Assembly: GCF_013167455.1 (NCBI RefSeq)
Contig: NZ_CP038328.1
DNA from: Escherichia coli O157:H7
GTDB taxonomy: Bacteria > Pseudomonadota > Gammaproteobacteria > Enterobacterales > Enterobacteriaceae
Length of the DNA stretch: 64,000 nt
Direction: 5' to 3' (one strand)
In this document: positions 18,037 to 62,961 of the stretch, in pieces
Position numbering within the stretch: the first letter of the stretch is position 1
Layout: each line of letters starts with the position of its first letter
Program-made: the position numbers and the translations under genes
The notes under the pieces: generated by a model
What the model was told of the DNA's origin: nothing
The model's input: only the letters and a program-made list of their open reading frames with translations
Database searches by the model: none

Positions 18037-18783
18037 ATGAGCCAATATTTGATTTTTCAGCTTCATGGGCCAATGGCATCCTGGGGCGTCGATGCCCCCG
18101 GCGAAGTGCGTCATACCCATGAACTGCCTTCGCGCTCAGCATTGCTGGGGCTGCTGGCTGCCGGGGTAGGGATTCGGCGTGATGATACCGAACGATTAAA
18201 CGCGTTTAACCGCCACTATTCACTGGTGGTTTGCGCCAGCCGTAACCCGCGCTGGGCACGGGATTATCACACGGTCCAGATGCCAAAAGAGGTGCGTAAA
18301 GCGCGTTATTTCAGCCGTCGCGAAGAGTTGAGCGCCCCTGATCTTCTGAGCGCGATTATCTCCCGGCGCGACTACTACACCGATGCCTGGTGGATGGTGG
18401 CGGTGGCAACAACCCCCGATGCGCCTTACAGCCTTGAACAGTTGCAGGACGGTTTACGTCATCCGGTTTTTCCGCTTTATCTGGGGCGAAAAAGTCATCC
18501 GCTGGCGTTACCACTTGCGCCGTTACTGCTCGAAGGCAACGCGTCTGATGTCTTACGTAACGCATACCAACAGTATCAGGATAGTTTCCGCGAACTGAAA
18601 GTCTCACTCCCGAAACTTCAGGATGAATGCTGGTGGGAAGGGGAACACGACGGCCTGGTCGCGAGCAAAATATTACGTCGCCGGGATGTTCCTTTAAATC
18701 GTCAGCAGTGGCTGTTTGGGGAACGCACCATCAATCAGGGGCCGTGGCTCAGCAAGGAGGAACCATGTACCTCTCAAGAATAA
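18037..18783 (+). CDS. casD: Cas5/CasD
   Basis: 248-aa ORF; operon position. Confidence 0.8.
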   Translation: MSQYLIFQLHGPMASWGVDAPGEVRHTHELPSRSALLGLLAAGVGIRRDDTERLNAFNRHYSLVVCASRNPRWARDYHTVQMPKEVRKARYFSRREELSAPDLLSAIISRRDYYTDAWWMVAVATTPDAPYSLEQLQDGLRHPVFPLYLGRKSHPLALPLAPLLLEGNASDVLRNAYQQYQDSFRELKVSLPKLQDECWWEGEHDGLVASKILRRRDVPLNRQQWLFGERTINQGPWLSKEEPCTSQE

Positions 18784-32090: not shown

Positions 32091-32126
32091 AAGGCCAGTC
32101 TCAAGCGAGGCTGGCCTTTTTCTTTT
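32091..32126 (+). terminator. rho-independent terminator of rpoS
   Basis: aaaggccagtctcaagcgaggctggcc stem then TTTTTCTTTT. Confidence 0.85.
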
Positions 32127-32193
32127 GTTTGGGAAGCTTGTGTTTTTGTCGCCTGGATAAGACACGTCAGCGTCCTACCCGGCAATTTGCATC

Positions 32194-32634
32194 CTATGTG
32201 TTCATCATCTTGCGCACCAGCTGCACAAACAGCTCCTGCTCTTCTGCACTCAAACGCCCCAAAAATTCCTCATCCACGCTGTCACCAATCGGTATCGCCG
32301 CAGCAAGTATCTTTTCTCCTTCGGCAGTCAGCCAGACAAAGCGACGCCGCTTGTCAGCGGCATCATGTTCACGTCTGACTAAGCCACGATTCTCCATTCT
32401 TGCCAACATTTCTGCCAACGTTGCTTTGGTGCTGACTGCTGCTTCTATCAGTGCCACCTGTTCGATACCAGGCTTATCAGCAATGGCGCGCATCACCGCA
32501 TACTGTGGTTTGGTCAGGTCAGGTAACTCGTGCTGCCAGCGAGCCGTGTGCTGCTGAAAAAGCTGTCGTAACTGATGGAACGCTTTATTTCGTAACGTCA
32601 TGTAAACTCCGGGCAAACTATCTGCCGCTATCAT
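32194..32634 (-). CDS. MarR/SlyA-family transcriptional regulator
   Basis: 146-aa ORF (alternative start at 32601); winged-helix-type sequence; divergent from decarboxylase genes. Confidence 0.75.
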   Translation of the reverse strand: MIAADSLPGVYMTLRNKAFHQLRQLFQQHTARWQHELPDLTKPQYAVMRAIADKPGIEQVALIEAAVSTKATLAEMLARMENRGLVRREHDAADKRRRFVWLTAEGEKILAAAIPIGDSVDEEFLGRLSAEEQELFVQLVRKMMNT

Positions 32635-32717
32635 AGCGGTTTTTCAGTGACGAAGGGGATGTTGTTACTTTTCAGTGCTTGCCGCAATGAGAACAGAGGC
32701 GTATTTTAATAATAATG

Positions 32718-32731
32718 TTCGTATACGAACA
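32718..32731. promoter_or_regulatory. perfect 14-bp palindrome GTTCGTATACGAAC, candidate operator of the MarR-like regulator
   Basis: Self-complementary 14-mer 17 bp upstream of ATG 32748, in the divergent promoter region. Confidence 0.5.
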
Positions 32732-32747
32732 ATTAAGAGAGTAAGCA

Positions 32748-33341
32748 ATGAAACTGATCGTCGGGATGACAGGGGCTACCGGTGCGCCTCTTGGTGTGGC
32801 ATTACTGCAAGCGCTGCGGGAGATGCCGAATGTCGAGACTCATCTGGTGATGTCGAAGTGGGCGAAAACCACCATTGAACTGGAAACGCCTTACAGCGCC
32901 CGCGATGTTGCTGCCCTCGCTGACTTCAGCCATAACCCGGCGGATCAGGCGGCGACCATCTCCTCAGGTTCCTTTCGTACAGACGGCATGATCGTTATTC
33001 CGTGCAGTATGAAAACGCTCGCCGGTATCCGCGCTGGTTACGCTGATGGCCTGGTAGGGCGCGCGGCGGACGTCGTGCTTAAAGAAGGCCGCAAACTGGT
33101 GCTGGTGCCGCGTGAAATGCCGCTTAGCACCATCCATCTCGAAAATATGCTCGCACTTTCACGCATGGGCGTGGCGATGGTGCCGCCGATGCCTGCCTTT
33201 TATAACCATCCCGAAACGGTAGATGACATTGTCCACCACGTGGTAGCCCGCGTGCTGGATCAATTTGGCCTTGAACATCCCTACGCCAGGCGCTGGCAAG
33301 GATTGCCGCAGGCCCGGAATTTTTCTCAGGAGAATGAATAA
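32748..33341 (+). CDS. UbiX-type flavin prenyltransferase (Pad1-like)
   Basis: 197-aa ORF; MKLIVGMTGATGA N-terminus. Confidence 0.85.
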   Translation: MKLIVGMTGATGAPLGVALLQALREMPNVETHLVMSKWAKTTIELETPYSARDVAALADFSHNPADQAATISSGSFRTDGMIVIPCSMKTLAGIRAGYADGLVGRAADVVLKEGRKLVLVPREMPLSTIHLENMLALSRMGVAMVPPMPAFYNHPETVDDIVHHVVARVLDQFGLEHPYARRWQGLPQARNFSQENE

Positions 33342-34768
33342 TGGCATTTGATGATTTACGCAGCTTTTTACAGGCGCTTGATGACCACGGCCAGTTACTG
33401 AAAATCAGCGAAGAGGTGAACGCGGAACCGGATCTGGCTGCCGCTGCCAACGCCACCGGGCGTATCGGCGATGGTGCACCGGCGCTGTGGTTTGATAATA
33501 TTCGCGGTTTTACCGATGCCCGCGTGGCGATGAATACCATCGGTTCCTGGCAGAACCACGCGATTTCCTTGGGCCTGCCGCCAAACACCCCGGTTAAAAA
33601 ACAGATTGATGAGTTTATCCGCCGCTGGGATAACTTCCCGATCGCCCCGGAGCGCCGCGCCAATCCAGCCTGGGCGCAGAACACCGTCGATGGTGACGAG
33701 ATTAATCTGTTCGATATCCTGCCGCTGTTTCGTTTAAACGACGGTGATGGCGGTTTCTATCTCGACAAAGCGTGCGTGGTTTCCCGCGATCCGCTCGACC
33801 CGGATAACTTCGGCAAGCAGAACGTCGGTATCTACCGCATGGAAGTGAAGGGCAAGCGTAAGCTCGGCCTGCAACCGGTGCCGATGCACGATATCGCCCT
33901 GCATCTGCATAAAGCGGAAGAGCGCGGTGAAGATCTGCCGATTGCCATCACCCTGGGTAACGATCCGATCATCACCCTTATGGGCGCCACGCCGCTGAAA
34001 TACGATCAGTCTGAGTATGAAATGGCAGGCGCGCTGCGCGAAAGCCCGTACCCGATCGCCACCGCGCCATTGACTGGTTTTGATGTGCCGTGGGGTTCAG
34101 AAGTGATCCTCGAAGGGGTTATCGAAAGCCGCAAACGCGAAATCGAAGGGCCGTTCGGTGAGTTTACCGGGCACTACTCCGGCGGGCGTAACATGACCGT
34201 GGTGCGTATCGATAAAGTCTCTTACCGCACCAGGCCGATTTTCGAATCGCTGTACCTCGGCATGCCGTGGACCGAAATCGACTACCTGATGGGGCCAGCC
34301 ACCTGTGTGCCGCTGTATCAACAACTGAAAGCCGAGTTCCCGGAAGTGCAGGCGGTAAACGCCATGTACACCCACGGCCTGCTGGCGATTATCTCCACCA
34401 AAAAACGCTACGGCGGCTTTGCCCGCGCGGTGGGCCTGCGTGCGATGACCACGCCGCACGGTCTGGGCTACGTAAAGATGGTGATTATGGTCGATGAAGA
34501 CGTTGACCCGTTCAACCTGCCGCAGGTGATGTGGGCGCTCTCCTCGAAAGTAAATCCGGCAGGGGATTTGGTGCAGTTGCCGAATATGTCCGTGCTGGAA
34601 CTCGACCCTGGCTCAAGCCCGGCGGGGATCACCGACAAGCTGATTATCGACGCCACCACGCCTGTCGCCCCGGACAACCGTGGTCACTACAGCCAGCCGG
34701 TGGTGGATTTGCCGGAAACCAAAGCCTGGGCTGAAAAACTGACCGCTATGCTGGCCGCACGTAAATAA
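33341..34768 (+). CDS. UbiD-family (prFMN-dependent) decarboxylase, phenolic acid decarboxylase C-subunit-like
   Basis: 475-aa ORF overlapping UbiX-like stop. Confidence 0.85.
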   Translation: MAFDDLRSFLQALDDHGQLLKISEEVNAEPDLAAAANATGRIGDGAPALWFDNIRGFTDARVAMNTIGSWQNHAISLGLPPNTPVKKQIDEFIRRWDNFPIAPERRANPAWAQNTVDGDEINLFDILPLFRLNDGDGGFYLDKACVVSRDPLDPDNFGKQNVGIYRMEVKGKRKLGLQPVPMHDIALHLHKAEERGEDLPIAITLGNDPIITLMGATPLKYDQSEYEMAGALRESPYPIATAPLTGFDVPWGSEVILEGVIESRKREIEGPFGEFTGHYSGGRNMTVVRIDKVSYRTRPIFESLYLGMPWTEIDYLMGPATCVPLYQQLKAEFPEVQAVNAMYTHGLLAIISTKKRYGGFARAVGLRAMTTPHGLGYVKMVIMVDEDVDPFNLPQVMWALSSKVNPAGDLVQLPNMSVLELDPGSSPAGITDKLIIDATTPVAPDNRGHYSQPVVDLPETKAWAEKLTAMLAARK

Positions 34769-34778
34769 GGAGAACAAG

Positions 34779-35015
34779 ATGATTTGTCCACGTTGTGCCG
34801 ATGAACAGATTGAAGTGATGGCGAAATCGCCGGTGAAAGATGTCTGGACGGTATATCAGTGCCAGCATTGCCTTTATACCTGGCGCGATACCGAACCGCT
34901 GCGCCGTACCAGCCGCGAACATTATCCCGAAGCGTTCCGCATGACGCAGAAAGATATTGATGACGCGCCAATGGTGCCGAGCATCCCGCCGCTGCTGGCG
35001 GAAGGTAAGCGCTAA
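34779..35015 (+). CDS. small zinc-ribbon subunit of phenolic acid decarboxylase (D-subunit-like)
   Basis: 78-aa ORF with CPRC...CQHC pairs directly after the UbiD-like gene. Confidence 0.7.
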   Translation: MICPRCADEQIEVMAKSPVKDVWTVYQCQHCLYTWRDTEPLRRTSREHYPEAFRMTQKDIDDAPMVPSIPPLLAEGKR

Positions 35016-35023
35016 TAAAAAGT

Positions 35024-35051
35024 GCCGGGTAGTGGCTTTGCTTTACCCGGC
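35024..35051. terminator. hairpin between convergent decarboxylase operon and pphB
   Basis: gccgggta...tacccggc stem with A/T-rich flanks. Confidence 0.5.
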
Positions 35052-35055
35052 CTCA

Positions 35056-35712
35056 TTACTTTATTTTATAAAATGACAGCCGCCCGCTTTTCGGCGATCC
35101 GGTATCAATATAAATCTGGTTAGCGAACGTCTGAATGTTATCAAACATCATATGTCCAAATATAAAATAATCAGCGCCGTTTATTTGTTGTAACTCGCCA
35201 TTAAGCGATTTCTGCACACGATCAACAGGCCAGAGTAATTCGCTCTCCGCTATTTCTTTACCAAAGAGATATTCACTCCCCGGATAATCTGCATGTGCGA
35301 TGACATATTTTATGTTGTCGTTAGTGATTTCAATAATATGTGGAAGGTGATGGAATTTCAGCAACAGATCTGTAGCTTCTTTTTGCTCTGAATCATTTAA
35401 ATCGAAAAACCAGTCACCACCGCTGGCAAGCCACATATTGCCATCGCCGGTCGCGAACGCATCCAGCGCCATTGCTTCGTGGTTGCCTTTAACGGAGATA
35501 AACCAGGGCTGGTTTAGCAGGCGCAGGACGTTAAGACTCTCCGGCCCACGATCAATATTATCGCCGACAGAAATAAGTAAGTCGGTTTCGGGGAAAAAAG
35601 AGAGTTGATGTAAGCGGGATTGTAATAACTGATATTCACCATGAATATCACCAACGACCCATATATGGCGATAGTGATGGGTATTGATTTTTTGATAGCG
35701 TGTAGATGGCAT
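35056..35712 (-). CDS. pphB: serine/threonine protein phosphatase 2
   Basis: 218-aa ORF; metallophosphatase motifs (GDIHG, GDNIDRG, GNHE). Confidence 0.85.
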   Translation of the reverse strand: MPSTRYQKINTHHYRHIWVVGDIHGEYQLLQSRLHQLSFFPETDLLISVGDNIDRGPESLNVLRLLNQPWFISVKGNHEAMALDAFATGDGNMWLASGGDWFFDLNDSEQKEATDLLLKFHHLPHIIEITNDNIKYVIAHADYPGSEYLFGKEIAESELLWPVDRVQKSLNGELQQINGADYFIFGHMMFDNIQTFANQIYIDTGSPKSGRLSFYKIK

Positions 35713-61525: not shown

Positions 61526-62961
61526 TTTGCCTCCGATGCCAGTTCGTCAAAGACGTCTTTGCCGAGGGAGCATTCCGGGCACAGGAAGTTATCCGGGACT
61601 TCACTCCACGGCGTTCCTGGCGCAACGTCCTGCATTGGCTCGCCTTTTGCCGGATCGTAAATCCACTGGCAGACGCTGCACTGCATCCGTGGGCCGAGGT
61701 CAGCCGTCGTGGTGGCAGAGGTTTCTTCTTTAACTACCGTATTCACCGTGCTCTGCGGCAGCGGCGCGAGCGCCCACTGACGGGCGATTTCGCGACCGTG
61801 TTCACGGCATAACTCCAGAGCGTCCTGGTCTGGTCGCCATTTCGCTTTCAGGCTAAGCGACATTTCGAAACCCGCATCCTGCAGGCGCGTGGAAAGACGA
61901 TCCACCGCACCGCCGCTCCAGCCGTGAGAGCCGAAAGCACTGGCGCGTTTGTTACGGAAGCGTAATCCGGTCATCTCCTCCACCAGCCCGGCGATTTTCG
62001 GCATCATCACGTTATTCATCGTCGAAGTGCCGACCAGCACGCCTTTTGAGCGGAAGACATTGGTCAGGATTTCGTTTTTATCGCTTCGGGCGACGTTGAA
62101 AATTTTCACCGCCACGCGTGGGTCGGTTTCCGCAATCCCCTGGGCGATAGCGTCAGCCATCATGCGGGTGTTATTCGACATGGTGTCGTAGAAAATGGTG
62201 ATTCTGTCTTCCTGATAATCAGCCGCCCATTTCAGGTACAGCTCGACAATTTGCGTCGGGTTATCGCGCCATACCACGCCGTGAGAGGTCGCTATCATAT
62301 CGACTGGTAAGTTAAAGCCCAGGATCTCGGTAATTTTCGGCGTTACCAGACGGCTGAACGGCGTAAGGATATTGGCGTAGTAACGCTGGCACTGCTCAAA
62401 AAGCTCCGTCTGATCCACTTCATCGTTGAACAGATGCTCGTCGCAGTAGTGCTGACCGAAAGCATCGTTACTGAACAGCACCGCGTCGCCTGTCAGGTAA
62501 GTCATCATGCTGTCCGGCCAGTGCAGCATTGGTGTTTCGACAAAAATGAGCTGTTTGCCGTTGCCGATATCCAGCGTGTCGCCAGTTTTCACCACATTAA
62601 AATTCCACTCCGGATGATGGTGATGACCATTTATCGAGTCGATAGCGTTGGCTGTACAGTAGATCGGCGTATCGGGAATTTGTGCCATCAGTTCGGTCAG
62701 CGCCCCGGCGTGGTCCTCTTCTGCATGGTTAATCACGATGTAATCGATATCCGCCAGATCGATTTCATTACGCAGGTTCTGCACAAATTCGCGGCTGAAT
62801 TTATGGTCGACGGTGTCGATCAGCACGTTTTTTTCTTCGCGGATGAGGTAGCTGTTGTAGCTGCTGCCGCGCAGCGTTTTATATTCCGTGCCGTGAAAAT
62901 CTCGTACTTCCCAGTCACGTTGACCAACCCAATGAATGTTATTTTTCACCACAATAGACAT
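61522..62961 (-). CDS. norV: anaerobic nitric oxide reductase flavorubredoxin
   Basis: 479-aa ORF; C-terminal rubredoxin CxxC pairs. Confidence 0.95.

Follow-up and report, generated by a model that had tools for sequence, protein, structure and literature searches.

The MarR family of transcriptional regulators offers several described systems with which the locus examined here can be compared. The archetype of the family, MarR acting on marO in Escherichia coli, resembles HosA in that a winged-helix dimer occupies a palindromic site overlapping a promoter and is relieved by a phenolic ligand. The two proteins belong to the same Pfam family, but HosA matches the MarR equivalog model weakly (29 bits against a cut-off of 240), and both the operator sequence and the regulated genes of the MarR-marO system are different. 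A second relative is PcaV of Streptomyces coelicolor, a MarR-family repressor that protocatechuate, a hydroxybenzoate, releases from its palindromic operator between divergent genes. PcaV (PDB 4fht/4g9y) is among the closest solved structures after HosA itself, being the second listed (E = 3.2e-16), but the sequence relationship is only a distant one, and the target of PcaV is the beta-ketoadipate pathway, not a UbiX/UbiD decarboxylase. A third comparison is provided by the BagL/FevM MarR regulators (NCBIfam NF041230), which come from actinomycete bagremycin and ferroverdin biosynthetic clusters and whose model is the best NCBIfam match of the HosA protein studied here; at 88 bits against a cut-off of 230, this protein is not a member of the group. 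The product of hadB, the gene adjacent to hosA, also matches the neighbouring BagM/FevK UbiX-type NCBIfam model, and the two matches together suggest that the association of MarR, UbiX and UbiD genes is an old one.

The closest described system is that of HosA in E. coli UMN026, for which Roy & Ranjan (2016, Biochemistry 55:1120) are credited with defining a 14-bp site. As their work is summarised in two HosA crystal-structure preprints, the HAD operon and hosA itself are both repressed by HosA, 4-hydroxybenzoic acid (4-HBA) disrupts the binding of HosA to DNA and induces the HAD operon, and the location of the palindromic site, downstream of where transcription starts, suggests that RNA polymerase is obstructed sterically. 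By EMSA and BLI, recombinant UMN026 HosA binds a 43-bp DNA containing the 14-bp palindromic TFBS, and 4-HBA, whose Kd is 4.7 uM, dissociates the protein from this DNA (PMC6261655). HosA of O157:H7 has been reported to give a specific response of up to 38-fold to 4-hydroxybenzoate in a reporter circuit (Ligify 2.0, 2026, PMC13355054), the supplement of that study being without a plasmid or operator sequence. The HosA site has been reused in several 4-hydroxybenzoate biosensors, and the HosA/operator pair is already in use as a biosensor module for this paraben breakdown product.

The window considered here, that is, the whole stretch of DNA that was analysed, comprises 64,000 nucleotides (64 kb) of E. 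coli O157:H7 sequence. Over the 3 kb surrounding the site of interest, which lie between rpoS and pphB/mutS, identity to E. coli O157:H7 chromosomes is 100%. Four genes make up the locus:

32194..32601, minus strand: hosA, MarR-family winged-helix repressor, 135 aa (RefSeq CDS, Pfam PF01047, PDB 8aga)
32748..33341, plus strand: hadB, UbiX-family flavin prenyltransferase, subunit B (NCBIfam VdcB NF041206, RefSeq)
33341..34768, plus strand: hadC, UbiD-family decarboxylase, subunit C (NCBIfam VdcC NF041204, RefSeq)
34779..35015, plus strand: hadD, small subunit D (NCBIfam VdcD NF041205, RefSeq)

A preliminary description made from the DNA letters alone had spoken of a MarR-like regulator, an assignment that can now be both upheld and narrowed. 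The regulator matches the Pfam MarR family PF01047 over residues 29-85 (E = 5.8e-12; 45.7 bits against a cut-off of 24.6) and is specifically HosA: a full-length comparison with PDB 8aga ("Transcriptional regulator HosA") gives 132 identical residues out of 135 (E = 7.8e-84), and the same identity holds for six other HosA entries of the PDB. It is 98% identical to the crystallised HosA of EPEC, and the three differences, at positions 2, 98 and 125, fall outside the winged-helix match at residues 29-85. The plus-strand genes are named in RefSeq as non-oxidative hydroxyarylic acid decarboxylase subunits B, C and D. Their products exceed the cut-offs of the respective NCBIfam models, namely VdcB for HadB (311 bits, cut-off 290), VdcC for HadC (790.5 bits, cut-off 650) and VdcD for HadD (121 bits, cut-off 30); in addition, HadB matches the Pfam Flavoprotein family (UbiX type) and HadC matches all three of UbiD_N, UbiD and UbiD_C. 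These genes are hadBCD, the non-oxidative hydroxyarylic acid decarboxylase operon, transcribed divergently from hosA. The full hosA-hadBCD locus (window 32100-35100) is present in 2378 of 5426 complete E. coli genomes (~44%), a partial presence consistent with the polymorphism already described for the rpoS-mutS region. Its intergenic region occurs in E. coli as at least two classes of alleles, one ~95-100% and the other ~88% identical to the window.

Within the intergenic region, the following elements are discussed below:

32625..32639, no strand: inverted repeat CCGCTAT-C-ATAGCGG (7+7), flagged as a hairpin
32679..32684, plus strand: probable hadBCD -35 hexamer TTGCCG; TTG at 32679-32681 is 99-100% conserved among 75 regions
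32702..32707, plus strand: probable hadBCD -10 hexamer TATTTT; TAnnnT (32702, 32703, 32707) is 97-100% conserved
32717..32730, no strand: HosA operator, as supported by the evidence below; perfect palindrome GTTCGTATACGAAC with half-sites GTTCG/CGAAC and a 4-bp centre
32735..32741, plus strand: Shine-Dalgarno-like AAGAGAG for hadB; GAGG at the aligned position in most genera

The palindrome GTTCGTATACGAAC occurs once in the 64-kb window and is exactly self-complementary, just as had been described, although its true span of 32717-32730 lies one base to the left of the 32718-32731 originally given. The maximal perfect palindrome is the 16-bp TGTTCGTATACGAACA at 32716-32731, in which the pair T32716/A32731 flanks the 14-mer. 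The distance of 17 bp to the UbiX-like start codon was also correct, with 17 nt (32731-32747) separating the 14-mer from the hadB ATG at 32748.

This 14-mer matches the published HosA binding site. GTTCGTATACGAAC is found in the supplementary oligonucleotide table S1 of PMC6261655, where the flanks equal those of the window, with CAGAGGCGTATTTTAATAATAA and then C or T before the site and AATTAAGAGA after it. A longer probe from the same source, CAGAGGCGTATTTTAATAATAAC-[site]-AATTAAGAGAATAAACAATGAG, corresponds to window positions 32695-32752 save for a few substitutions. Given that this is the site of the EMSA/BLI probe, the earlier proposal that the palindrome is the operator of the MarR-like regulator is borne out, and phenolic acids, which had been put forward as ligands, agree with the known ligand 4-HBA (PMC6261655). 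The UMN026 site thus has the same 14-bp palindrome, the same placement upstream of hadB and the same regulator as the window. Between O157:H7 and the published site there are only allelic differences, the flanks being alike save for a few substitutions: O157:H7 has T rather than C at 32716, which creates the 16-bp palindrome, and three changes lie between the site and the ATG. The operator of the hosA-hadBCD locus is accordingly an already characterised one and not a new feature, and the discovery value of the palindrome itself is limited, since site, regulator, ligand and mode of action were published in 2016.

One discrepancy in the published table deserves comment. In the machine-read version of table S1 of PMC6261655, the bold segments print GTTTCG, one T more than the window site. 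This extra T was read as a text-conversion artefact for four reasons: both complementary oligonucleotides carry an identical string, as only a palindrome could; another such T occurs elsewhere in one oligonucleotide relative to its complement; a non-bold oligonucleotide has GTTCGTATACGAAC intact; and the probe, once corrected, exists in nature. With the extra T removed, it matches 490 E. coli genomes at 100% identity, immediately before hadB. A site copied from the machine-read text would be a non-palindromic 15-mer.

By itself, a palindrome of this length is unremarkable at the scale of the window. Perfect palindromes of 14 bp or longer number 5, where Markov simulations lead one to expect 5.3 +/- 2.5, and those of 16 bp or longer number 2, where 1.3 are expected. 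The four additional palindromes, of 14-16 bp, are the 16-bp AAGAAACGCGTTTCTT at 11407-11422, CCTGGCGCGCCAGG at 3618-3631, TTAAACGCGTTTAA at 18196-18209 and CAAAGACGTCTTTG at 61548-61561, and their number agrees with chance expectation. Such a palindrome is uncommon inside the 146-bp intergenic region, where dinucleotide shuffling produced one of at least 14 bp in 244 of 20,000 trials and one of at least 16 bp in 56 of 20,000. When the 64-kb window was searched, with mismatches allowed, for the 14-mer and for GTTCG-N4-CGAAC, the additional matches were at chance level only, so that nothing points to a HosA regulon inside this stretch. The window-wide palindrome count and the lack of a significant second copy are both what would be expected if the palindrome had arisen by chance and had no function. 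Because palindromes occur in the window at the chance rate, outside evidence is needed, and here conservation is decisive.

A profile of HosA homologues was used to collect 80 loci from 18 named genera, ranging from Escherichia to Rahnella and with HosA identities from 96% down to 60%; 75 hosA-hadB intergenic regions, the window included, were compared. Divergent hosA and hadB neighbours are found in 74 of the 80 species loci. The motif GTTCG-N4-CGAAC is exact in 71 of the 75 intergenic regions, the remaining four carrying ATTCG-N4-CGAAC, and it is found together with hosA in all 80 loci. In total, the related loci, which add up to 418,891 nt, contain 75 exact occurrences where 0.4 would be expected, and all of those whose position was checked (the 71 in aligned intergenic regions and those in six further loci) lie in the same place upstream of hosA. 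Information content averages 1.97 bits per column in the half-sites and 1.4 in the central four bases; the remainder of the intergenic region has 0.80. The half-site columns are 95-100% invariant across the 75 regions while the flanks drift, the central four bases being TATA, TACA, TGTA, TATG or CATA, and the palindrome is unchanged even in those E. coli alleles that share just 88% identity with the window across the intergenic region. The conservation data refute the chance reading, to which practically no credence can be given. Since position 32716 is T or C and unconserved, the functional unit is the 14-mer rather than the 16-bp palindrome. The essentially invariant half-sites GTTCG/CGAAC, which extend through the Enterobacteriaceae and Rahnella (80 species), support the transfer of the UMN026 results to O157:H7 and to other genera.

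Several loci in this collection depart from the common arrangement. In L053 (a Pluralibacter MAG), L062 (Superficieibacter) and L079 (Rahnella victoriana), no UbiX-like hadB stands beside hosA; the gene following the operator is a UbiD-like hadC, whose product starts with MAFDDLRSF or MVFDDLRSF, and the operator is kept. The MAG "Citrobacter sp. HRGM_Genome_0066" contains two hosA loci (L002 and L017), one of them lying on a contig of 5,967 bp and Escherichia-like, with 96% HosA identity, and the other Citrobacter-like (77%). The 5,967-bp Escherichia-like contig in this bin is probably E. coli contamination.

The placement of the operator relative to the had promoter was then considered. A consensus scan offered the promoter ATGAGA-18-AATAAT, which was passed over for TTGCCG-17-TATTTT, a pair that the scan did not list; the latter is preferred for the 97-100% conservation of its key positions over the 75 species. 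With a spacer of 17 nt between the two hexamers, the hadBCD start site is predicted from the sequence at approximately 32713-32716. The operator begins 9 nt past the -10 hexamer, at roughly +3 to +17 from this predicted start. Its position just downstream of the putative had start agrees with the published wording, "downstream to transcriptional start site", used in a summary of the 2016 work. The preliminary description had set the palindrome in the divergent promoter region between the two genes; the divergent intergenic placement holds, but the site appears to lie within the initial transcribed region of the had promoter rather than between two promoters.

If the predicted start is right, the site would be transcribed, and the main role of the palindrome might then be that of a hairpin in the RNA, at the hadBCD 5' end, affecting the stability or translation of the message rather than binding a protein as DNA. 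Such a hairpin would have a 5-6 bp stem and a 4-nt loop, and the isolated 16-mer does fold at -5.0 kcal/mol (z = -4.2); an invariant "stem" enclosing four variable central nucleotides would also be expected of a stem with a free loop. In the context of the mRNA, however, the fold is no better than that of shuffled sequences (z = -0.48), and it leaves both the Shine-Dalgarno sequence and the ATG uncovered. Compensatory changes in the stem are absent from all 75 loci, the bases being simply invariant as base-specific protein contacts predict, and the second copy of the motif carried by other genera (see below) lies upstream of the -35 hexamer, outside the had transcript. Moreover, HosA binds double-stranded DNA containing the site in vitro (PMC6261655). 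A primary role as an RNA hairpin is consequently considered very unlikely.

It is likewise conceivable that the palindrome belongs to a different regulator, or forms a weak intrinsic terminator on the minus strand, and that HosA acts elsewhere, for example on CCGCTAT-C-ATAGCGG. Read on the minus strand, the site has a 6-bp stem with a T-rich tail behind it, and the consensus scan does class it as terminator-like; a second inverted repeat also exists at 32625-32639. Against the first of these points, no gene on the minus strand finishes upstream of the palindrome so as to need a terminator, and the hairpin stem is weak, with only 6 bp, 3 G-C pairs and -5 to -5.8 kcal/mol; on these grounds an intrinsic (rho-independent) terminator was rejected. 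Against the second, the published HosA probes carry the 14-mer and not the 32625-32639 repeat (PMC6261655), and the constant company of the motif and hosA in the 80 loci argues against a different regulator. Taken together, this alternative is regarded as extremely improbable.

The palindrome is therefore supported as the operator of the divergently encoded HosA, and it is held with high confidence that a HosA dimer bound there blocks RNA polymerase and keeps hadBCD off until 4-HBA releases it. The basis for this reading in the present analysis is the identity of protein and site, the conservation and the geometry; binding, release, repression and autorepression are taken from the UMN026 and O157:H7 literature. 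In the proposed sequence of events, a HosA dimer would place one recognition helix on each of the GTTCG/CGAAC half-sites, and RNA polymerase would be blocked at or just after initiation at PhadB, either in open-complex formation or in promoter escape. With an operator at about +3 to +17, bound HosA would stop the polymerase at or shortly after this step, so that the hydroxyarylic acid decarboxylase operon would stay off. When 4-HBA, a substrate of the encoded enzyme, binds HosA, the protein would leave the DNA and the operon would be induced.

On the other side of the intergenic region, the inverted repeat at 32625-32639 coincides with a second block of conservation. In the 75 regions, columns 32629-32639 are 83-99% conserved except for 32632 (C or G) and 32638 (65%), and the core shared across genera is TAT[C/G]ATAGC at 32629-32637. 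The minus-strand TATGAT running from 32635 to 32630 is a probable hosA -10 element, although the repeat could instead serve another factor. This candidate -10 (32630-32635, minus strand) lies ~85 bp from the operator, and Escherichia has no second site; because of this separation, the reported autorepression of hosA is not explained by simple promoter occlusion in E. coli.

In relatives of E. coli, the control region is organised differently. A second HosA-like site is present in 35 of the 75 intergenic regions, at a fixed distance of 56-57 bp upstream of the main operator and abutting the had -35 hexamer. It reads GATCG-N4-CGAAC in 26 of these 35 and GTGCG-N4-CGAAC in one Kluyvera ascorbata locus, with one half-site mismatch each, while in eight regions from Klebsiella and Kluyvera the left half is weaker, with two mismatches. 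The genera in which it occurs include Enterobacter, Klebsiella, Kluyvera, Lelliottia, Leclercia, Pseudocitrobacter and others, and an example can be stated as follows:

L042:2380-2400 region, Enterobacter hormaechei: second HosA-like site

Among the 75 regions compared, the second site is absent from Escherichia, Salmonella, most Citrobacter, Kosakonia and Rahnella, and the equivalent stretch of the window, at approximately 32660-32674, holds no such site. The Escherichia intergenic regions are also shorter, at 145-146 bp against ~170 bp in most other genera, with a gap of ~23 bp at window position 32644/32645, near the hosA promoter. The stretch missing from Escherichia contains a conserved TTTTAA, which could be the hosA -35 element (TTAAAA on the minus strand) in those genera.

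These differences raise the tentative possibility, to which somewhat less than even weight is given, that the E. coli operator is the sole survivor of an ancestral two-operator control region. If so, and if the second site is functional and previously undescribed, E. coli and its relatives would be expected to differ in the tightness of control, in cooperativity or DNA looping, and in autoregulation. A lineage-restricted second site of this kind could merit a small experiment. As a minor observation, the intergenic region of the window also contains an exact 9-nt direct repeat, TTTTCAGTG, at 32641-32649 and 32669-32677 with a spacing of 28 nt; the repeat could be due to chance, and no function is suggested for it.
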